From IMG/VR virus record IMGVR_UViG_3300005973_000002: 64,000 nucleotides of DNA, one strand, 5' to 3'. The stretch comes from a virus (taxonomy: Duplodnaviria; Caudoviricetes). Shown in pieces: positions 453-63,598 of this stretch. Under the pieces are notes generated by a model. That model saw only the letters and a program-made list of their open reading frames with translations. It ran no database searches and was not told where the DNA came from. A program made the translations under genes and the position numbers. The first letter of the stretch is position 1. Every line of letters starts with the position of its first letter.

Positions 453-653
453 ATGAGCAAAACACTTTCAAATTTAGTAAAGAAATACCGACGGGCGAAG
501 ATTGGAAACAAGTTTCAGTTCCCGCATGTTAGAAAGGTTAGCCCAACACTGATATCACAGCAGGTTGTATCAGTCCAACCAATGAGTCTTCCTTCTGGTT
601 TGCTGTTCTACTTAGACTACTCCTATACAAGTGGAAGTAATAAACAGGAATGA
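453..653 (+). CDS. Stand-alone 66-aa fragment of a T4 gp23-type major capsid protein
   Basis: FPHVRKVSPTLISQQVVSVQPMSLPSGLLFYLDYSY matches the conserved gp23 segment VRRxxPxLIAxDxxGVQPMxxPTGxxFxL. Confidence 0.7.
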   Translation: MSKTLSNLVKKYRRAKIGNKFQFPHVRKVSPTLISQQVVSVQPMSLPSGLLFYLDYSYTSGSNKQE

Positions 654-1045: not shown

Positions 1046-1289
1046 AAATATGCCAATGTAGATGGTCTGGTATATTTCTTTGCTGGGTTCTTAATTCAAT
1101 ATTTTTACCAAAAACTCTTTGACTGACATCAACCAGATGATAAATAATTTTTGGCGTTATTCTAACTGTATGTTTGCGAAGAACTATCATGGGAACTCTA
1201 CATGAAAGACAGTCACAAATGACAATCAGATCGTCTTCATAGTACCAACGTGTTTTTTGATCTAAGATACAGAGATCGCATTCTTTCAT
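1029..1289 (-). CDS. HIT-like small protein
   Basis: N-terminal CDLC and C-terminal PDHLHWHI (HxHxH triad). Confidence 0.6.
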   Translation of the reverse strand: MKECDLCILDQKTRWYYEDDLIVICDCLSCRVPMIVLRKHTVRITPKIIYHLVDVSQRVFGKNIELRTQQRNIPDHLHWHIFNLLE

Positions 1290-1840
1290 AACAAATCCAA
1301 GTAATCAAGGCCGGCATATGCACAGTCAAACCCTCTTATACTTCCATTCTTAATGTTATTTCTGAATTTACCAAGTGGCCACTTAACTACTTGCAAAAAT
1401 TCATTTTCATCAAGTTCTAATCCATCAACTTTGCGACAGTTGTGTGCAACGAACATGTGTCGCATTCCAGTAGAATATGGATTGTAATTTTGCTTACCAA
1501 GGTAATGAATCTCACCTTCATATCCGGTTTCTTCTTTCAGCTCTCGGATGGCAGATTCCATAGGATCTTCACCCTTTTCCATCCCACCACCTGGTAATTC
1601 TATACAATAGTTTTCAACACCAGGTCTAAATTGCCTTACCGTGAGAACTTTATTGTCATCTGTTACTGCAAAAATTTGGACGGAATCTTTATTGTCATCG
1701 ATAAAAAAGTTCTCGATGATGCCATTTGGTAAACGAAATGTCTTAACAATAAAGTCTTTATCGTACCCAGAAAGGTTATCCTTGATTTTATACTTTTTTT
1801 CGTTTATTTTTTTATAGTCGCCCATGATATCACTTCTCAC
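1286..1840 (-). CDS. Nudix hydrolase (ADP-ribose pyrophosphatase-like)
   Basis: Nudix box GGGMEKGEDPMESAIRELKEETGY, preceded by RQFRP...ELPG. Confidence 0.92.
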   Translation of the reverse strand: MRSDIMGDYKKINEKKYKIKDNLSGYDKDFIVKTFRLPNGIIENFFIDDNKDSVQIFAVTDDNKVLTVRQFRPGVENYCIELPGGGMEKGEDPMESAIRELKEETGYEGEIHYLGKQNYNPYSTGMRHMFVAHNCRKVDGLELDENEFLQVVKWPLGKFRNNIKNGSIRGFDCAYAGLDYLDLL

Positions 1841-2382: not shown

Positions 2383-4383
2383 ATGGCTAAGAAATGGAAT
2401 TTTGATCCTTTTAAAGGCTACAAAGGAAATCTTGATTGGTTGGAGAAGCGAACCATTTTCGTAACTGTGCATGGATCACAAGCTTATGGCACCTCCATGC
2501 CTGAATCTGACATTGATGTCAAAGGCTTGGCTATTCCCCCCAAGGAATATTTCCATGGTTTTGTAAAGAATTTTGAGCAAGCAGAAGGCAAGGAACCATA
2601 TGATATGGTTATTTATGGTCTTCGTAAGTTCATGAAGCTTGCTTCGAATTGCAACCCAAACATCATTGAAGTTTTATTTACCGACCCAGATGATTGGGTT
2701 GTTGACACCGTTATTTTTCGAAAACTTTGGGAGCATCGTGATCTTTTTTTAAGCAAAAAGGCTAGATTCACGTTTAGTGGATATGCAAATCAGCAGCTAA
2801 AACGAATCAAGGGTCACAAGCGTTGGCTTTTGGAGCCGCCTACACATAAGCCGACCCGAGAAGAATTTGGTCTTCCTGTTGAACGTAAGATGAGTCAGTC
2901 AGAAATCGGGGCTACGCAAAAATTGGTTGACGATGGTGCCCCATTGGCTGAAGACATTATGAGACTCTTTCACAAAGAACAGAAGTATTATAGTGCAAGG
3001 CGTGAATGGGAACAATACCAAAAGTGGAAGCGCACTCGTAACGAAAAGCGAGCAAAGCTTGAAGCTGATTTTGGTTATGATTGTTATTTGGATGACACAG
3101 AATTTTTGACGGAACGTGGTTGGCTGCCTTACGAGCAAATCACCAAAGCAGATAAGCTGGCAACGGTTCGTCAAAAAACAGGGGAACTGGAGTTCCAGAA
3201 GTTTAGCGAACGAGTCCGAAAGCCTTATAGTGGAGAAATTCTTCACTTCGAAACCCAAGATAGTCTGTGCTCTGTAACTCCCAATCACAGAATGCTGGTG
3301 TCTCCCATGTGCCGCAGCAGAAAAAACGGGTTTTCAACAAGGTATCGGCAGCAGACTGCCAAGTGGCAAATCAAAAGAGCAGATGAGCTTCTCAATGAGT
3401 ATAAAAGCCATTATCATATTCGGTTGACGGCACATCAAACCAAAGACAACACAGAAATTTCTGAAAACCTTCTTTGGATCGTGGGTACCTATGTTAGTGA
3501 AGGTTGTGTTGGGAAACGACTCAAGAACGGCGCACCATCTGTCTTGAGGTTCTCGCAAAAGGAATCCAATAGGCAGCAGGTGTTTTTGGACTCCTTGTGT
3601 GAGAGCACCGAAATGCGGAAAATCACCCATTTTCGTGAAGACAAGGGGTATAATGAACTGATTTATACCTTGGCTGACCGCAGTTTAGCCAAACAGGTTG
3701 TTGAATGGTGCGGCGAATATTCCAGGAACAAACGACTGCCACCGTGGATCACCACCCTGTCAAGTCAACAAGCAAATAGCTTGTTGAATGTCATGATTGC
3801 TGGGGACGGCACAGAGCGTAAATATAGCTCCATTTACTACACAATTTCGCAAGCTCTGGCTAATGATGTCCAGACACTTGGGGTCATTGCGGGAAGGCCC
3901 ACTAAAATTTGGGGGCCTTACGAGGACGGCATGTATCAGGTATATCTTGGCGATCCAGAGGCAACAGATTCTCTTGTGGCTACCAAATACGGTCATGTTA
4001 CTAGTGAAGAAGTTGTTGATCGCCACATTGTTTGCTTTACTGTACCTAATGAGATTTTGATCACACGTCGGAAGGGTAAGCTGGCAATTCAGGGCAACAC
4101 CAAACATGCTGGTCATCTAGTTCGTCTTATGCGAATGTGTCGAGAAATTCTTAGTGAAGGCAAGGTTTACGTTCGACGACCGGATGCTGATGAACTCATG
4201 GCTATTCGTAAGGGAGCATGGACTTATGATGAGCTAATTGAATGGGCCGACAAACAAGATAAAGAAATGCAAAAACTATACGAGACTTCTCCACTTCCTG
4301 AAAAGCCTCAAGTAGAAAAAATTGACAAGGTTTGCCAAATGCTTGTAGAAGAGGCTTTACGGCACGAGTCACTTCGGTTCTAA
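2383..4383 (+). CDS. DNA polymerase beta-superfamily nucleotidyltransferase (RlaP/Nuc-transf-like) containing an intein
   Basis: HGSQAYGTSMPESDIDVKG motif, NCNPNIIEVLF and GYD|TKHAGHLVRL. GGAGG SD upstream. The spliced product would be 327 aa. Confidence 0.88.
   Translation: MAKKWNFDPFKGYKGNLDWLEKRTIFVTVHGSQAYGTSMPESDIDVKGLAIPPKEYFHGFVKNFEQAEGKEPYDMVIYGLRKFMKLASNCNPNIIEVLFTDPDDWVVDTVIFRKLWEHRDLFLSKKARFTFSGYANQQLKRIKGHKRWLLEPPTHKPTREEFGLPVERKMSQSEIGATQKLVDDGAPLAEDIMRLFHKEQKYYSARREWEQYQKWKRTRNEKRAKLEADFGYDCYLDDTEFLTERGWLPYEQITKADKLATVRQKTGELEFQKFSERVRKPYSGEILHFETQDSLCSVTPNHRMLVSPMCRSRKNGFSTRYRQQTAKWQIKRADELLNEYKSHYHIRLTAHQTKDNTEISENLLWIVGTYVSEGCVGKRLKNGAPSVLRFSQKESNRQQVFLDSLCESTEMRKITHFREDKGYNELIYTLADRSLAKQVVEWCGEYSRNKRLPPWITTLSSQQANSLLNVMIAGDGTERKYSSIYYTISQALANDVQTLGVIAGRPTKIWGPYEDGMYQVYLGDPEATDSLVATKYGHVTSEEVVDRHIVCFTVPNEILITRRKGKLAIQGNTKHAGHLVRLMRMCREILSEGKVYVRRPDADELMAIRKGAWTYDELIEWADKQDKEMQKLYETSPLPEKPQVEKIDKVCQMLVEEALRHESLRF
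3082..4098 (+). mobile_element. Intein (339 aa) with LAGLIDADG homing endonuclease domain
   Basis: Starts CYLDDTEFLT; has block B VTPNHRML and LAGLIDADG-like VGTYVSEG and MIAGDGT; ends CFTVPNE...LAIQGN, followed by Thr. Confidence 0.92.
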
Positions 4384-6133: not shown

Positions 6134-6766
6134 ATGACCAAAACTAAATACCAGCTCTTTGTGGACATGGATGGAGTCCTTGTAGATTACATGGGTGGCG
6201 TTTTGCCGACCATGAATGAATTTGTTGCAGAGGTCGCAGCAGCTCCGAATCGCTTTAAGACAGAAAAACCAGACCTTTATAAGGCTGCAAAGAAAGCAAT
6301 TGCCGAAATGGGTGGTAATGTTGATGAAGGCTACGTTGGTACTGAAATAAAATACCACGATGTCGGCAAGGGAACGGAAAAGAAAAAGGTTCGTTCTTTG
6401 ATGTACACCCTTGTTTCTAACAACTACCAGTGGTGGGTTAATCTTGATTGGATGCCAGATGGCCGTGAACTATGGAATCACATCAAAAGACATAATCCAA
6501 TTATTCTTACAGGACCCCAAGGTCCCAATTCCAAAAAGGGTAAGAAAGATTGGGTAAATCGTGAGCTTGGTCTGGGGAAAGATCGAATTATTATCACGCA
6601 TACAAAGCATGAAGAAGTTCGCCCAATGCTTAAAAAAGGAATTATGCCAGTTTTGATCGACGATCTACCCAAATACGTCGTTCCCTTTAGAAATGCGGGT
6701 GGTATTTGCATTCATCACATCAACACCGAGCAAACAATTCGAGAACTGGAAGCGTTTGGATTTTAG
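6134..6766 (+). CDS. HAD-family 5'(3')-deoxyribonucleotidase-like phosphatase
   Basis: LFVDMDGVL, ILTG and LIDD motifs. Confidence 0.8.
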   Translation: MTKTKYQLFVDMDGVLVDYMGGVLPTMNEFVAEVAAAPNRFKTEKPDLYKAAKKAIAEMGGNVDEGYVGTEIKYHDVGKGTEKKKVRSLMYTLVSNNYQWWVNLDWMPDGRELWNHIKRHNPIILTGPQGPNSKKGKKDWVNRELGLGKDRIIITHTKHEEVRPMLKKGIMPVLIDDLPKYVVPFRNAGGICIHHINTEQTIRELEAFGF

Positions 6767-7507
6767 TTACTTCTTTTTCTTTCCGGTAAAGAGGTTACTA
6801 ACCCACTTATCGAGCCAGCCTTTCTTTTGAGGGGCTGGTTTTTTCTTATTAACCTTAGGCTTGTTAAGTTTTGGTTTCGGTTCCGGCTCCTGTTGTACTT
6901 CAGGAGTGGTAACTTTGAGCCTGTTTCTGCGTTCTTCGACCCATTCTTCAACATATGGCCCAGGACATGTAGCCTTGTTTTTTCTTGCACCCCATTGCTT
7001 AGCTTCGGCATGAAAACTTAGACCATCAGGCAAATTAAGTTCGTGACGATCAACAAGCCAGTCAGTCAAGGCTTCCGCCATCTTAAACTGTTCATCAGAT
7101 GGCTGCCCAGTTTTTCCAGGGTGTAAATTTCCCTGCCACACAACGCCGACACCTTCATCATTGCAACGCTGACCGGTGTGCCACGCTCTTTCATCATCCT
7201 GAGCTAGTCTGTAGATAATCATGTTGCCATCATCATCATACTCGGGCTTATAGGACAACCAATAATGATATGGTCTGGCACCAAAGTTTCTTTTTTGAAT
7301 AACGTAACGTATTGAATTTCTAGCTCCCTCGAAGCCATCAGCACCATAAGCTCCAGAGTTGTGAAAGAAAACTCTTACGATTTTAATTCCAATTGGTCTG
7401 CGGTTTGAACGTGGGTTTGTTGGCTTTGGTAAGATGTCACTGACATCATAAATTGCAATTTTTCCTGGCAAAACAACTTCAAGTCTTGCTTCTTTTGGTA
7501 AAGTCAT
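6767..7507 (-). CDS. N-acetylmuramoyl-L-alanine amidase (Amidase_2, endolysin)
   Basis: FFHNS, PYHY, AWHTG...N, H and TCPG Zn-ligand pattern. Lys/Pro-rich C-terminal tail. AGGAGG SD. Confidence 0.85.
   Translation of the reverse strand: MTLPKEARLEVVLPGKIAIYDVSDILPKPTNPRSNRRPIGIKIVRVFFHNSGAYGADGFEGARNSIRYVIQKRNFGARPYHYWLSYKPEYDDDGNMIIYRLAQDDERAWHTGQRCNDEGVGVVWQGNLHPGKTGQPSDEQFKMAEALTDWLVDRHELNLPDGLSFHAEAKQWGARKNKATCPGPYVEEWVEERRNRLKVTTPEVQQEPEPKPKLNKPKVNKKKPAPQKKGWLDKWVSNLFTGKKKK
6813..6847 (+). terminator. Putative terminator for the HAD gene, embedded antisense in the amidase CDS
   Basis: AGCCAGCCTTTC-TTTT-GAGGGGCTGGTT stem (12 bp with G-U pairs) followed by TTTTCTT. Confidence 0.45.
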
Positions 7508-57792: not shown

Positions 57793-58302
57793 ATGTCAAC
57801 AAATAAAAAAACAGATGAAGATTTGCTAGACGATTTTGAGTCTATGCTGTCAGATAAAATGGCAGAAGAAGACAAACCATATCAATATACGGAACAATCT
57901 TTTGACCCACAAGTGCCAGAAACAAGTTTTAAGCCAACACCAACTAAAGAACTTGATAAAAAAATCAACAAACAACTAAAAGACTTTAGTTCATTGCTTG
58001 ATTCTTTATCTTCACTTGAAGATAAAAAGAAGGCACTATGGAAACAGATTTATGAAAATTCTGTTACGGATCGCAAAAACGCATATATTTTGTTTGGTGA
58101 TCTCTATAAAGATGTTCACAACAATCCAAATGAGCATGCCATTCATGGCCCAACCTTAGCCAAGTATCTTGAACGAATGGAAAAATCAAATCAACAGCTT
58201 ATTAAACTTGCTGAAATGATTGATGATGTAGTTGAAGAAGAAGAAGATTTGCTTACTGATGAAGATTCTATTTACGACAGGATTCAAAAGGGACAAAGGT
58301 GA
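57793..58302 (+). CDS. Hypothetical helical protein
   Basis: 169 aa with acidic termini and a helical core. Confidence 0.75.
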   Translation: MSTNKKTDEDLLDDFESMLSDKMAEEDKPYQYTEQSFDPQVPETSFKPTPTKELDKKINKQLKDFSSLLDSLSSLEDKKKALWKQIYENSVTDRKNAYILFGDLYKDVHNNPNEHAIHGPTLAKYLERMEKSNQQLIKLAEMIDDVVEEEEDLLTDEDSIYDRIQKGQR

Positions 58303-60386
58303 TGGCGTTTTTTCTGAAAAAATTGATTAAAGAAGAAGTAAGAAAAACTTTGCGATTGCTCACTGAGGGTATCGTCCACATTGACAAACTCAAGCCAGAA
58401 GAGCTTTTAGAGTTTCTTAGAGGGTGGAATTTAGATAAGGCCAGGTTCCATGTGTCAGAAAAAATGGATGGCAATTACATGGCTTTGGGGGTGGACAATG
58501 GTCAGTTTTACTTGAGAAGCAAAAGTAAAACATTTGAGTCTGCCGATGATGTCCCAAATATATTCTTCATGAACGACTTTAGGAAATACTTCAATCTGCT
58601 TCAGTCCATTCCTTGGAATGAAATTTTTGTTAAGATGGCTACAAAGTGGAATTTTGATTTTGACGGAACGTTTGAAATCGAGGGTGAGGCCATTCCATCG
58701 TTCGACCACAACATTGTTATTTATGATGAGGCAAAAATTGGGGATGGTATCTTTCTTATTTTTAATACAAAATCTACTATGGGCAAAGAAAAAAGTGGAA
58801 GAGTTCACAATCCAGAAATGTGGCTTGACCTTGCGCAAGAGGTTAACAAATACAGCTCAGTTAAATTCTTTTCTGTACCACAGGTAAGTTTAGACGACCT
58901 GGAATTTGATAACGATCTTATCGTAAATTTAGAAGCTCTTATTCAAGAACACGGTAACTTTTTAAAAAAGCCAGCCAGAACACAAGCTGCCAAGGAACTC
59001 AAAGCCAAACTGTTGGCGACAATAGCAGAGCTTGGAAAACAAGCCAAGAGGCAAGCTCTACAAGTACCAGTATCAAGCAAATTTGGCCCGGAAGTAGAGG
59101 GCGTTGTTATTTCTGGACCAGGGGGGAAATTAGTAAAAATTGTTGACACAGAAAAGTTCACTGCCAGAAAAGAAAGAAACTGGCATTTCATTAATCAACT
59201 AATTTCGGCCGAGCGTGATTTCAAAAAAAGGATAAAAGAAAACCCACAAGATTTGGAACTACATCTGCTTGAATGGCAAGAAGAAGTAGAGGACATCCAA
59301 AAAGACTTTGATAAAAATGGGCACAAATACATAACGATCCGAAAGAAATTTGAAGATACGCAAAATGGAATTGACTTTGCATTGGGCATGATAAAAGCGA
59401 TGAAAGATCGCCTTGATGCTGGGCAAACTTCTGAGGAGGTTATTGCTGCCTTCAACAATCGTCAAGTTGTTCCCGAAAATGCGAAATCGCTTTCTGAATC
59501 AGTTTTTATTACCGAAGCTGAACTCAATGAAGGTGGAAATGTTTTTGATGAGATGAATTCTGTAGTGCCAAAATCACTTCTTGAACCAAGTATTGAAAGA
59601 GCGATGGTATTAGCCAATTTGGATGGAATTAAATTTGAAATAGTTGGCAACAAAACTAAACCATTCTTCAATGACATTGACGTTGCTATTGATGCAACGG
59701 ATTTGCTGAATTACCTTGGTCTTCCTGAAGGTACTCAAGAATTTTGGGATGAGCTGAATACTCATCTGGCAAGATCTAACGTTGAAAAATATTCAATCAT
59801 CAAGGGCCTAAAGCAGTTTCATATTTTGGTTCCACTTATTGACAGTTCCGGTGAACAGGTTAGAGCTTTCTTACCAGATGGTGAAAGCAGAAGTGACGAA
59901 CCTGCGTTAATTCAAATTGATGTGTTTGTTGGAAACTTGCAGTGGATGAAAGATATCAATTCTGGTGCGCCAGAATCAAGCAAATACAAGGCATCGTATA
60001 GGAATATGTTACTTGCGTCAATAGCTTCAGTAGTTCAATGGAGCATAGAAGGCGATTCAGACAATGAGTATTTTCGTTATGTGATGAATTTCAGGGACGG
60101 ACTAAAGCGACAGAAGATCAAAGTAATTTCACCAAGTGGCAGAAGAAAAAAACCTAAAAAGGAAAAGCTATCGGACCAAGTAGTAACTTCAAACCCTGAT
60201 GATCTTGCCAAAATTCTTTTCGGCAAAGGTGTCAAATGGTCTGACATGAATTCATTTGAAGAATTATACAATCTTCTTACAAGTAAAAAATTTCGCTTTG
60301 AAAAATTTTTACCTGAAATCATCAAGGAATTTAGAACCTCGCTAGAAAAACAAGGCATGGAAGTTCCTAAACAAGTTTCTGAATGA
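58299..60386 (+). CDS. Fusion of an ATP-dependent (RNA) ligase-like domain and a pol-beta nucleotidyltransferase-like domain
   Basis: Ligase motifs I SEKMDG, III EIEGE, IV EGVVI and V LVKIV. Then EGGNVF...GNKTKPFFNDIDVAID...IQIDVF. Confidence 0.7.
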   Translation: MMAFFLKKLIKEEVRKTLRLLTEGIVHIDKLKPEELLEFLRGWNLDKARFHVSEKMDGNYMALGVDNGQFYLRSKSKTFESADDVPNIFFMNDFRKYFNLLQSIPWNEIFVKMATKWNFDFDGTFEIEGEAIPSFDHNIVIYDEAKIGDGIFLIFNTKSTMGKEKSGRVHNPEMWLDLAQEVNKYSSVKFFSVPQVSLDDLEFDNDLIVNLEALIQEHGNFLKKPARTQAAKELKAKLLATIAELGKQAKRQALQVPVSSKFGPEVEGVVISGPGGKLVKIVDTEKFTARKERNWHFINQLISAERDFKKRIKENPQDLELHLLEWQEEVEDIQKDFDKNGHKYITIRKKFEDTQNGIDFALGMIKAMKDRLDAGQTSEEVIAAFNNRQVVPENAKSLSESVFITEAELNEGGNVFDEMNSVVPKSLLEPSIERAMVLANLDGIKFEIVGNKTKPFFNDIDVAIDATDLLNYLGLPEGTQEFWDELNTHLARSNVEKYSIIKGLKQFHILVPLIDSSGEQVRAFLPDGESRSDEPALIQIDVFVGNLQWMKDINSGAPESSKYKASYRNMLLASIASVVQWSIEGDSDNEYFRYVMNFRDGLKRQKIKVISPSGRRKKPKKEKLSDQVVTSNPDDLAKILFGKGVKWSDMNSFEELYNLLTSKKFRFEKFLPEIIKEFRTSLEKQGMEVPKQVSE

Positions 60387-61199
60387 TTAACGACGATAAA
60401 ACTGGTTGAAAACATCCTGCGTTAAGCCGTAATCAACCAAAACAGGAACTTCTCTGCCATTTCTATTGACCGCACCCCAAGAACTTATACGCATAATATC
60501 ACCAGAAGGCATTCCAAAATCTGCCATCATGGTGACAACATCGCTGAACAATTCTGATTCTTCAATTTCTTCATAGTTGTCAGGAACAGGCATTTTCCAT
60601 CCACGTTGACCTGTTCGATCAATCATGTAATTGTTAAGAGTGGCCATCCAACCATCAAACTTGTGACCAGTGAGCCGCTCCCAATCAGACTTTTTTAATT
60701 TTTTAGCTCGTTCCATTTCAATGTAAAGATAGTTGTCAGCATCATAGTCCTTGACTTCTGCAATTACATTGTAGCCAATGTGCGACACATCTACTTCGAT
60801 TTCGTTTTGCGCCTGTCCCTTTTTGTTGTTTGCAATCTTGACCACCGTGTTTGGATCTACGGCGAAAACAACACGTGCCGAGCCCCCACCAAGTTTGCCA
60901 AGATGCTCACGGGCATAAGCTACTCTTTTACGAAAGCTTGGCAGCGACTTAAATTCTTCAGTGTCAAATCCTTGAGGATAGTCTGCCTCATCAAGCCAAC
61001 CTTCATACAAAGGCTGTTCATGAAGTTCTTCAAGAGCTTCAGCAACCAAATGGCCTATCATTTCCCGTAAATCGTTTTCTGAAATGCTTTTTTCGCCTTC
61101 CTGTTCTTCATTGTCAAACAATAACAATTTTTCTTTGCCGCCAACTTTTACAGTTTTTTTATTGGCTGACTTTTGTTCTTTGGTGTGCCCATCAATCAT
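60387..61199 (-). CDS. Protein-kinase-like fold protein
   Basis: KLGGGSARVVF (Gly loop), VVKIA (Lys), QNEIE (helix C Glu), GDIMRISSWG (catalytic loop) and LVDYGL (DFG-like). Confidence 0.72.
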   Translation of the reverse strand: MIDGHTKEQKSANKKTVKVGGKEKLLLFDNEEQEGEKSISENDLREMIGHLVAEALEELHEQPLYEGWLDEADYPQGFDTEEFKSLPSFRKRVAYAREHLGKLGGGSARVVFAVDPNTVVKIANNKKGQAQNEIEVDVSHIGYNVIAEVKDYDADNYLYIEMERAKKLKKSDWERLTGHKFDGWMATLNNYMIDRTGQRGWKMPVPDNYEEIEESELFSDVVTMMADFGMPSGDIMRISSWGAVNRNGREVPVLVDYGLTQDVFNQFYRR

Positions 61200-61438
61200 A
61201 GCTCATCCTTTTCGTACGCTCTAAGAGCGTACGCTTTATGTTCCATTTCTTCAACAGTTTTTTTTAAATTTTCAATGAATCTCATTGCCATGGTAAAGTC
61301 TTTGTCTTGAAGCTTTTCTCTTATATAACCAAACAATTCTTCAACATCCTCTATTTCAGACGTGACTCCAGGTGCGCCAAGTTGTTCTTCGATAGTTTCT
61401 CGTATTATGTTCCGAAGTTCTGATTTTTTGATTTTCAT
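61196..61438 (-). CDS. Small helical protein with MKIKKSELRNIIRETIEE leader
   Basis: ATG 61438 overlaps the upstream stop (ATGA). Confidence 0.7.
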   Translation of the reverse strand: MKIKKSELRNIIRETIEEQLGAPGVTSEIEDVEELFGYIREKLQDKDFTMAMRFIENLKKTVEEMEHKAYALRAYEKDEL

Positions 61439-61845
61439 CTGAACGCCCTTTTGTTTTTCCATTCTCTTGCAGAATCATTGTCAAATATTCTCAAGACAAG
61501 ATTTACATATGCTCTTGGATCTTTACCACAACTATTCGCTTGTTCTTCTATGGCCGTTAGCAGTTTATGTGTTGCTGGATATGCACTGTAGGGTTCGAGA
61601 AGTGGCCTCATTGTATATACGACTTCATCAGCGTAATATCCATATGGATGTATATGCTGTTCGCCGAACATAGATTCGATTTCGTCAATCGTAACTTTGG
61701 CTATATGTTCCCACATTCCCGGAGCTGAATCTTCAACTTCTGGCTCAACAATAGCCTCATCCATTTCAATTTCACTCATGGTCTCAGCAGCGAGTGCTTT
61801 GACCAATTGCTCCATCGTATAGCCCATTGGGTCCGAACCGTACAT
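61435..61845 (-). CDS. Hypothetical protein
   Basis: 136 aa; TAATTA lies just upstream. Confidence 0.65.
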   Translation of the reverse strand: MYGSDPMGYTMEQLVKALAAETMSEIEMDEAIVEPEVEDSAPGMWEHIAKVTIDEIESMFGEQHIHPYGYYADEVVYTMRPLLEPYSAYPATHKLLTAIEEQANSCGKDPRAYVNLVLRIFDNDSAREWKNKRAFR

Positions 61846-62896: not shown

Positions 62897-63598
62897 TTAG
62901 CGAGGACGGCCCCTACCAATGCCCATGCCTCGGGCACCAAGGCCACCAATATCCTTGCCCATCTGCACAAGACGTTGTCCTGGGCCCATCATAAACGATT
63001 TTTGCGCCTTTTCAATGTCAGCTGCCTCACGGCCTGCGGAATAAACTCCAGAGCCACGTGGTACCGCCTGAAAGAGCTTGTCAGCAGCATCATTCAATGA
63101 TTGCGAAAGGCTTTGGAGGGTGTAAGCGGCAGCCGCAAATGGTTTGCTTAGCTCTTCTTTTGTTGCCGAATCAACTTCGGCAACTTTCTGAAGCTCATAA
63201 AGATCATAAAGTTGATCAATGTAGCTATTGAGTGCTTGTTCCACTGCTCTTACATCGGTAAGTTTTGTTGCAGCAAGATTTTTTCTTGCTTTTTCAACAC
63301 CTTTTGCCATCTGCATTACGGCCCTGGTGTCTCTTTGTTGCGCTTTAGCCTGCGCTTTTTCGCCTTTTTCCTTACCCATTCTTTCCAAGTCTTGAACGCC
63401 TAGTTTTTTAAACGGACCGAAAAATTCAAGCAGTTGTTTCTTGCTGTTGATTTTCTTGTGCTCTTTAAGAAATGGTGTATTGTATAAGCAAACTAAAGCA
63501 TAGTGCGCAGCCTGTTTCTGTTCTAGTGCAATGGAGGTCGATTCTCTTTTGACAGACTCGCTGACAAGCTTACGAAGTTGTGATTTTTTGATCTTCAT
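62897..63598 (-). CDS. Helical protein with MKIKKSQLRKLVSESVKRE leader
   Basis: GGAG SD and upstream TAATTA at 63620-63625. Confidence 0.75.
   Translation of the reverse strand: MKIKKSQLRKLVSESVKRESTSIALEQKQAAHYALVCLYNTPFLKEHKKINSKKQLLEFFGPFKKLGVQDLERMGKEKGEKAQAKAQQRDTRAVMQMAKGVEKARKNLAATKLTDVRAVEQALNSYIDQLYDLYELQKVAEVDSATKEELSKPFAAAAYTLQSLSQSLNDAADKLFQAVPRGSGVYSAGREAADIEKAQKSFMMGPGQRLVQMGKDIGGLGARGMGIGRGRPR

Follow-up and report, generated by a model that had tools for sequence, protein, structure and literature searches.

The 64,000-nucleotide stretch analyzed here, called the window below, comes from IMG/VR virus record IMGVR_UViG_3300005973_000002 (Duplodnaviria; Caudoviricetes) and belongs to a large T4-like phage. 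Situated among its late virion genes is a gene whose product, as modeled, joins an RNA-ligase-like half to a half resembling the family X polymerases (Table 1), and we refer to it as the fusion gene. Its GTG at 58299 is directly followed by an ATG at 58302, which overlaps the TGA of the upstream gene as TGATG, an arrangement suggestive of translational coupling; the database entry for it (P0002, 694 aa) takes this ATG as its start. A preliminary description, prepared from the letters of the stretch alone, had read the open reading frame (ORF) as an RNA-ligase-like domain fused to a pol-beta nucleotidyltransferase and had listed a leader, ligase motifs I, III, IV and V, an LNE-GGNVF junction and a GN...NDIDV...D transferase motif. 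All of these motifs were found in place and the ORF was confirmed, as its frame is intact and its catalytic residues are conserved across homologues. A chance ORF is not a credible explanation because there are 25 full-length homologues and 975 cluster representatives with conserved catalytic residues. The 25 homologues are co-linear with the fusion protein at 37–81% identity and are all metagenomic, several of them on contigs of 180–343 kb, while the larger number was obtained by searching 1.84 billion cluster representatives with a profile, at a threshold of E<=1e-3, and corresponds to ~975 clusters at 50% identity.

Table 1. Features of the fusion gene and of other genes in the window discussed in the text. 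A slash marks a candidate cleavage position here and throughout.
Feature	Position	Strand	Remarks
Whole fusion ORF	58299-60386	+	uninterrupted 695-codon frame incl. stop; 694 aa if started at ATG 58302
N-terminal amphipathic leader, residues 2-23, MAFFLKKLIKEEVRKTLRLLTE	58302-58367	+	ends L-T-E before G24; candidate capsid-targeting propeptide
Ligase adenylyltransferase domain, residues 24-285	58368-59153	+	placed by Foldseek, VIA, PF09414 and conservation
Ligase motif I, K55-M-D-G	58461-58472	+	
Conserved helical module, residues 286-404	59154-59510	+	invariant N294, I347, K350, T354
Junction TEAELNE/GGNVF, residues 405-416	59511-59546	+	L409-N-E411 conforms to (L/I)-x-E, the site cut by T4-type prohead proteases
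Family-X-like nucleotidyltransferase, residues 412-695	59532-60383	+	palm and thumb at ~residues 416-653, then C-terminal helical tail
Catalytic D459	59673-59675	+	
Catalytic D461	59679-59681	+	
Catalytic D541	59919-59921	+	
Acidic protein, 169 aa	57793-58302	+	directly upstream of the fusion gene, kept in relatives
Convergent gene, 270 aa, phrog_4301	60387-61199	-	unknown function; stop codon abuts that of the fusion gene, zero gap
Small neighbor gene with leader	61196-61462	-	
Small neighbor gene with leader	62897-63598	-	
66-aa ORF	453-653	+	
NUDIX hydrolase	1286-1840	-	E 3e-16
666-aa protein with N-terminal RlaP domain	2383-4383	+	PF10127 E 1.5e-18; phrog_388 E 1e-65
NT5C-like HAD nucleotidase (weak match)	6134-6766	+	
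Amidase_2 lysin	6767-7507	-	

AlphaFold models cover residues 1–300 and 405–695 of the fusion protein, and both were compared with known structures using Foldseek and an exhaustive structural aligner (VIA, which reports Z scores). Residue conservation was counted over 59 family clusters for the N-terminal (N) module and 101 for the C-terminal (C) module. The model of the N half (pLDDT 87.5) has only ligases as its structural matches. In Foldseek these were led by T. brucei REL1 (E 1.8e-5), Rnl3, T4 Rnl2, Naegleria Rnl, T4 Rnl1 and Trl1, and the VIA Z scores were 11.1 for NgrRnl, 10.7 for REL1, 10.3 for T4 Rnl2 and 9.6 for Trl1, with 8.7 for the best DNA ligase and 6–7 for capping enzymes. Beyond motif I, the catalytic set comprises motif III (EIEGE130AI), motif IV (E267-G-VVI) and motif V (LVK280IVD). 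K55, D57 and G58 were kept in 59/59 clusters, E267-G268 and K280 in 58/59, and E130 in 53/59. The N half is thus predicted to be an ATP-dependent ligase fold whose nearest relatives are the nick-sealing RNA ligases, and the ligase assignment of the preliminary description was borne out by its Z scores of 10–11 to RNA ligases and its invariant KMDG lysine.

The N module shares with T4 Rnl2, REL1 and NgrRnl (Rnl5) the adenylyltransferase fold, over ~190 aligned residues, and the KxDG/E/EG/K motifs. It differs from these nick-sealing enzymes in its low identity to them (~13–16%), a basic helical insert of ~80 residues between motifs IIIa and IV (residues ~172–254, GNFLxKPARTxxxKELK), a single motif V lysine and the attached polymerase-like module. 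The fusion protein scored 23.8 bits against PF09414 (RNA_ligase), below the gathering cut-off of 27, and 23/25 homologues matched that family at E<=0.1 (best 2.5e-7). A Pfam scan of the protein matched no DNA-ligase or OB-domain family. A reading of the N module as nothing more than the replicative DNA ligase of the phage was rejected, as the cultured megaphages Atu_ph07 and Phosso, which carry a related gene, also carry a LigA-type ligase.

Residues ~286–404 had been described as a coiled-coil linker. The region is helical, and the segment that follows motif V (residues 284–299) already forms a helix in the model of residues 1–300, but it is not a mere linker. It belongs to the ligase because it has invariant residues and accompanies the ligase domain in stand-alone proteins; a hidden Markov model of this middle region is matched in N-module proteins of 340–390 aa. 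PF18043 (T4_Rnl2_C) found no match in the fusion protein, and the helical module occupies the corresponding position, just as T4 Rnl2 has a helical module after its catalytic domain. Residues 286–404 are therefore probably the ligase's own C-terminal module, placed like the C domain of Rnl2.

The C half (model pLDDT 91.4) carries the motif G450-N451...N458-D459-I-D461-V...D541, with G450-N451, D459, D461 and D541 as its catalytic residues. G450, D459, D461 and D541 were each kept in 98/101 clusters, and position 451 is N in 60/101 and the canonical S in 36/101. The top Foldseek matches were all Pol beta, mu or lambda (E ~1e-4), and the top 10 of the 48,161 chains ranked by VIA were all family X polymerases, with the similarity spanning palm and thumb: Z was 9.1 for TdT, 8.8 for the Pol beta palm-thumb and 8.2 for ASFV Pol X (157/176 residues aligned). 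Residues 12–249 of the C model align to Pol beta 142–334, and R568 and N569 sit on the thumb helix, with R568 kept in 97/101 clusters. TUTases, CD-NTases and poly(A) polymerases gave Z<=6 and matched the palm only. The nearest entries in AlphaFold DB, BFVD and ESM Atlas were uncharacterized phage proteins, one of them from Agrobacterium phage Atu_ph07, followed by giant-virus and cellular Pol X enzymes.

The C module thus has in common with ASFV Pol X and with Pol beta, lambda, mu and TdT the palm, the thumb and the G-[SN]...DxD...D triad. It begins right at the palm and, like ASFV Pol X, is without the 8-kDa and fingers domains. It departs from family X in its sequence identity (~10–13%), its G-N in place of G-S, and the conserved N-terminal arm (EGGNVF..NSxVP) and C-terminal helical tail that flank the Pol X-like core; PF14792, PF14791 and PF10391, the palm and thumb models of Pol X, had no match at E<=1 in the fusion protein. 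As modeled, the C half is a minimal Pol X-like enzyme composed of palm and thumb. The pol-beta transferase fold named in the preliminary description therefore stands, and can be narrowed from a generic fold to a family-X-like one. Identity with RlaP was rejected for this module, since the ORF had no PF10127 match and its thumb is Pol X-like. Because the thumb is family-X-like, DNA stays a possible substrate.

The ligase and Pol X-like modules are evolutionarily coupled, being fused in either order or encoded by adjacent genes. Among 150 cluster representatives, there were 29 N-C fusions and 2 C-N fusions, next to 85 proteins with the C module alone and 34 with the N module alone. At one locus (L006) two neighboring genes encode the halves of the fusion separately (hhalign probability 100), and in Atu_ph07 and Phosso the N-module gene overlaps the start of the C-module gene. 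These ligase-like and Pol X-like gene pairs (Agrobacterium phage Atu_ph07, L008, 5064–6861; Sinorhizobium phage Phosso, L009, 4806–6858) are annotated as hypothetical and lie downstream of primase/helicase genes.

Further domains join the two modules in some relatives. The commonest is an NMNAT-like HIGH (cytidylyltransferase-like) domain, seen in 25/82 extra segments; no HIGH-transferase motif was found in any frame of the window. A Trl1-CPD-like 2H domain (P0014), a NUDIX domain and DUF6267 (P0073) occurred once each. DUF6267 (PF19782) is a ligase-like domain of T4-like cyanophages with the ligase motifs KWDG and EG..K, and it is a structural neighbor of the N module (TM 0.56, Atlas). Its gene stands beside a cytidyltransferase gene in those phages, and in P0073 it is fused to the same C module. 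Sequence similarity to the N module is at motif level only (hhalign probability under 10), and we treat the relation as a structural one suggested by the models; DUF6267 is itself uncharacterized. In Synechococcus phage S-CAM3 (L007, 5040–6197), as in T4-like cyanophages, the DUF6267 gene adjoins the gene annotated as "cytidyltransferase"; an hhalign comparison of S-CAM3 gp081 with the C module gave a negative result, and the S-CAM3 record had no match to either DNA-ligase Pfam family. This suggests that DUF6267 may be the ligase that seems to be missing from T4-like cyanophages.

No characterized protein with the architecture of the fusion was found in the PDB, cultured phages, PHROGs or the literature, in agreement with the statement in the preliminary description that it was not recognizable. 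Sequence searches of the PDB, with the single sequence and with the profile, gave nothing meaningful, and tblastn against 50,697 cultured-phage records had no match for the whole protein or for the P0073 C module; cultured phages were reached only through the divergent stand-alone members P0129 and P0039. PHROGs has no family for either half, the NCBIfam search matched nothing, and the literature search turned up no paper dealing with DUF6267 or with a fusion of a ligase and a Pol X. The fusion represents an unannotated phage family that has no PHROG, no Pfam match above cut-off and no solved relative by sequence. Ligase-plus-polymerase repair enzymes are a known kind; what is new is an RNA-ligase-type ligase fused to a mini Pol X.

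We hypothesize that the fusion protein is an enzyme that extends or fills, and then seals, broken polynucleotide ends, with RNA or ribo-terminated ends as the favored substrate, and we give this reading a probability of roughly 0.55 on the strength of the sequences and models. The task of the C module would be to lengthen a 3'-OH end by one or a few nucleotides, whether to fill a gap or to restore bases that had been lost. The N module would self-adenylylate on K55 with ATP, pass the AMP to a 5'-phosphate and seal the 3'-OH/5'-PO4 break. The reaction order and the substrate are what we infer here, as distinct from the folds, the intact catalytic residues and the coupling of the modules, which are described above. 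RNA is favored because the ligase half is nearest to the nick-sealing RNA ligases and because relatives have added, or adjoin, enzymes of RNA end healing. A class-II CCA-adding gene is directly upstream of P0014 and two genes upstream in L011 and L017, a HAD_PNKP 3'-phosphatase (E 1.4e-33) is encoded near the split pair of L006, and Ro60 and SpoU genes lie near P0025. A single-chain tailing and sealing role, as first proposed from the letters, would fit both the recurrent fusion or adjacency of the modules and these RNA-repair neighbors, with the amendment that DNA could be a substrate too.

Several known systems come close to this combination. RlaP pol-beta transferases, which are linked to RNA ligases, add 1–2 NMP to damaged RNA 3' ends before ligation and so restore function (PMC7824862; PMC12776372). 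RlaP (PF10127) is likewise a pol-beta transferase tied to an RNA ligase, for which an add-then-seal scheme has been proposed, but it belongs to a different family and is operonic, whereas the transferase of the fusion is covalently joined to its ligase. Bacterial LigD and fungal Trl1 place end healing or extension and sealing in one chain, and the relative P0014 adds a 2H domain like the CPD of Trl1; however, the polymerase of LigD is of the primase type and its ligase has an OB domain, and Trl1 has a kinase and no polymerase. In kinetoplastids, an Rnl2-like REL ligase and the pol-beta-fold transferase RET2 fill and seal nicks in duplex RNA, although REL and RET2 are separate proteins of a large complex and RET2 is a TUTase, not a Pol X-like enzyme.

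A number of observations weigh against an extend-then-seal enzyme for RNA. Among solved structures, those closest to the C module belong to thumb-bearing DNA polymerases, and this suggests templated synthesis. Motif V of the ligase half has one conserved lysine, not two, and a 5'-kinase is neither fused nor consistently adjacent. A genuine RlaP gene is present elsewhere in the window, and Atu_ph07 and Phosso come with a canonical PF09414 RNA ligase of their own, so that an ordinary role in tRNA repair would be partly redundant. Related genes adjoin primase/helicase genes in Atu_ph07, Phosso and S-CAM3. Lastly, the NMNAT-like HIGH transferase, for all that it is the commonest extra domain, is left unexplained by this reading.

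Some of these same observations would fit an enzyme serving in DNA repair, with the mini Pol X filling gaps or extending ends in the phage genome (at nicks, gaps or restriction breaks), possibly with ribonucleotides, and the ligase sealing them, in a logic like that of bacterial LigD or of ASFV with its Pol X and its ligase. In favor of this, the palm and thumb of Pol beta, lambda, mu and TdT, and nearly all of ASFV Pol X, can be superposed on the C module, the gene pairs of Atu_ph07 and Phosso and the DUF6267 gene of S-CAM3 lie in replication-gene neighborhoods, and S-CAM3 is the phage whose record matched neither DNA-ligase family. The combination of 2H, ligase and polymerase in P0014 also mirrors the PE-Lig-Pol set of LigD. 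However, the ligase half is closer to RNA than to DNA ligases, none of its top structural matches is a DNA ligase and no DNA-ligase or OB-domain family was matched by Pfam, the C module is without the 8-kDa lyase and fingers domains, RNA is the substrate of 2H cyclic phosphodiesterases and of CCA-adding enzymes, and Atu_ph07 and Phosso have their LigA-type DNA ligase already. On balance, we consider a dedicated DNA-repair role unlikely.

The NMNAT-like partner raises the different thought that the modules nucleotidylate proteins or small molecules, by NMPylation or in NAD-related chemistry. That partner is the commonest one, NUDIX occurs once, and enzymes of the pol-beta fold include protein and small-molecule transferases. 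Nevertheless, both modules find their best structural matches in polynucleotide enzymes, with a similarity that extends past the catalytic core, the ligase carries a basic helical insert, and the CD-NTase and TUTase matches are weaker and confined to the palm. Nothing was found to support the protein NMPylation offered as an option in the preliminary description, and a role away from polynucleotides seems to us highly improbable.

The ends of the two modules in the fusion protein raise a second question, namely whether that protein is loaded into the virion and cut there. The leader contains L6-KKLIKEEV14, with I-K-E at residues 10–12 as a possible second site, and forms a detached helix (residues 2–21) in the N model, where confidence is low at residues 17–22; residues 405–410, at the junction, are unstructured in the C model. 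In the family as a whole, a Glu directly precedes the G-G in 75/97 C-module starts; two positions ahead of that Glu, 75/75 have L (42), I (23), V (9) or M (1), for which the background is 30%. Seven stand-alone C proteins start at or next to the G-G. Similarly, leader-bearing N forms end in L-x-E/G-I-x-H, and ten leaderless forms start at or next to G-I-x-H (e.g., MG-I-x-H).

These joints resemble the processing signals of T4. The prohead protease of T4 recognizes (L/I)-x-E and cuts gp23, internal proteins and Alt (PMC9026906), and the T4 capsid-targeting sequence (CTS) is MKTYQEFIAE (PMC8442874), in which the aromatics at positions 4 and 7 target the protein and I/L at 8 and E at 10 direct its processing (PMC9026906). 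Some relatives of the fusion protein begin with leaders on the pattern M-K-x-F-x-x-[FY]-[LI]-x-E, as seen in the stand-alone C proteins P0154 (MKTFKEYLIE/GG), P0155 (MKRFKTFISE/GG), P0148 (MKKFQSYITE/GG) and P0129 (MVSFKQFLLE/GG), and genes adjoining two of these leader-bearing proteins begin with the same CTS-like pattern. Like the T4 internal proteins and Alt, which are cleaved by gp21, the fusion protein has an N-terminal leader ending in (L/I)-x-E, and its gene, as has been reported for alt (PMC5512222), lies by baseplate genes. The likeness has limits, in that the leader of the fusion is 23 residues rather than 10 and a second candidate site falls between two enzymes, as in a polyprotein.

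The gene neighborhoods point in the same direction. In nine loci, reaching down to 46% identity, the fusion gene and the gene of its 169-aa partner stand next to genes for the baseplate hub, gp25 and gp6, and Alt-family genes of T4-like phages also adjoin baseplate genes (PMC5512222). In other loci the fusion gene borders the head genes for the portal, S77 protease and Gp23, and S77 proteases are encoded on two related contigs (L012 and G001). The leaderless C proteins of Atu_ph07 and Phosso (MGGRAF.. and MGGAAF..) lie in replication neighborhoods.

We tentatively propose, at somewhat below even odds and from these comparisons, that the fusion protein is loaded into the capsid and processed as a polyprotein. 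The leader would take the protein into the prohead, where a T4-type prohead protease would cut after E23 (perhaps E12) and E411, freeing the ligase and the mini Pol X from each other. The two enzymes would then leave the head along with the DNA, as a repair kit able to act before phage gene expression. More broadly, the [LIV]-x-E/G joints may form a plug-in system by which ligase, Pol X, NMNAT-like and 2H modules are loaded into the heads of T4-like and jumbo phages. Cleavage after Glu and delivery from the virion, suggested in the preliminary description, thus gained comparative support from the junction rule, the CTS-like leaders and the baseplate and head neighbors.

We give about an even chance to the simpler possibility that the protein stays in the cytoplasm as an ordinary enzyme and undergoes neither cleavage nor packaging; [LIV]-x-E-G-G would then be a structural domain start and the leaders plain helices or linkers. 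In favor of this, the fusions P0037, P0038 and P0042 do not have the E-G-G motif, and the leaderless forms would evidently work as they are. The T4 late-promoter motif TATAAATA also had 4 matches in the window against ~3 expected, none of them near the fusion gene. Yet the three residues before the G-G are unstructured and seven proteins begin at or next to it, which sits poorly with a structural start whose third residue back is L, I, V or M in every one of 75 cases. It would likewise leave unaccounted for the copying of the T4 CTS pattern by the leaders of stand-alone relatives and their neighbors, the many lineages in which the gene adjoins baseplate or head genes, and the S77 proteases in relatives.

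Leaders of a similar kind were observed on other genes. Two small neighboring genes in the window begin with the leaders KIKKSELRNIIRETIEE and KIKKSQLRKLVSESVKRE, which resemble the leader KSQLKGILKECLIEILREE of a 158-aa protein encoded after the S77 prohead protease of contig L012 (L012:8357-8833). A scaffold-like 763-aa protein of the same contig ends in RRWQELAGIK. At L032:1255-2022 and L033:1032-3081, consecutive genes each have a T4-CTS-like leader (MKTFRQFLLE/G, MNRFKEY.., MKSFRDYKVLTE), and these gene runs look, from their sequences, like arrays of genes for capsid internal proteins.

With regard to the immediate neighbors of the fusion gene, the gene of the 169-aa acidic protein directly precedes it in nine loci, down to 57% identity, and its product matched no Pfam or PHROG family. 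The convergent 270-aa gene is kept downstream in the closer relatives (44–70% identity) and not in distant ones. At the other end of the window, the 666-aa RlaP protein has ~400 further residues beyond its genuine N-terminal RlaP domain, with only weak matches to a thymidylate-synthase phrog and to PhoH-like proteins. The NUDIX hydrolase, nucleotidase and lysin genes listed in Table 1 lie near it. Over a stretch of 38 residues, the 66-aa ORF shares 71% identity with the N-terminal region of the Gp23-like capsid protein encoded by L012, a related phage, and this ORF could be a capsid-gene fragment, a paralogue remnant or a split gene.

Overall, the family adds to the RNA-ligase-like enzymes a branch that is new, and it brings a minimal Pol X-like module to tailed phages, for which a review of phage polymerases lists no family X example (PMC8775771). 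With its fused add-then-seal design, the RlaP-type notion of nucleotide loss being made good ahead of ligation could be tested directly, and the same design might be a source of compact enzymes for work with nucleic acids. Through its link to DUF6267, the family also suggests where the ligase apparently missing from T4-like cyanophages might be sought. If the leaders and the [LIV]-x-E/G joints are real signals, phages would deliver repair enzymes along with their DNA, which would constitute a new class of ejected cargo, and the same sequence rule could then be used to find other cargo proteins.

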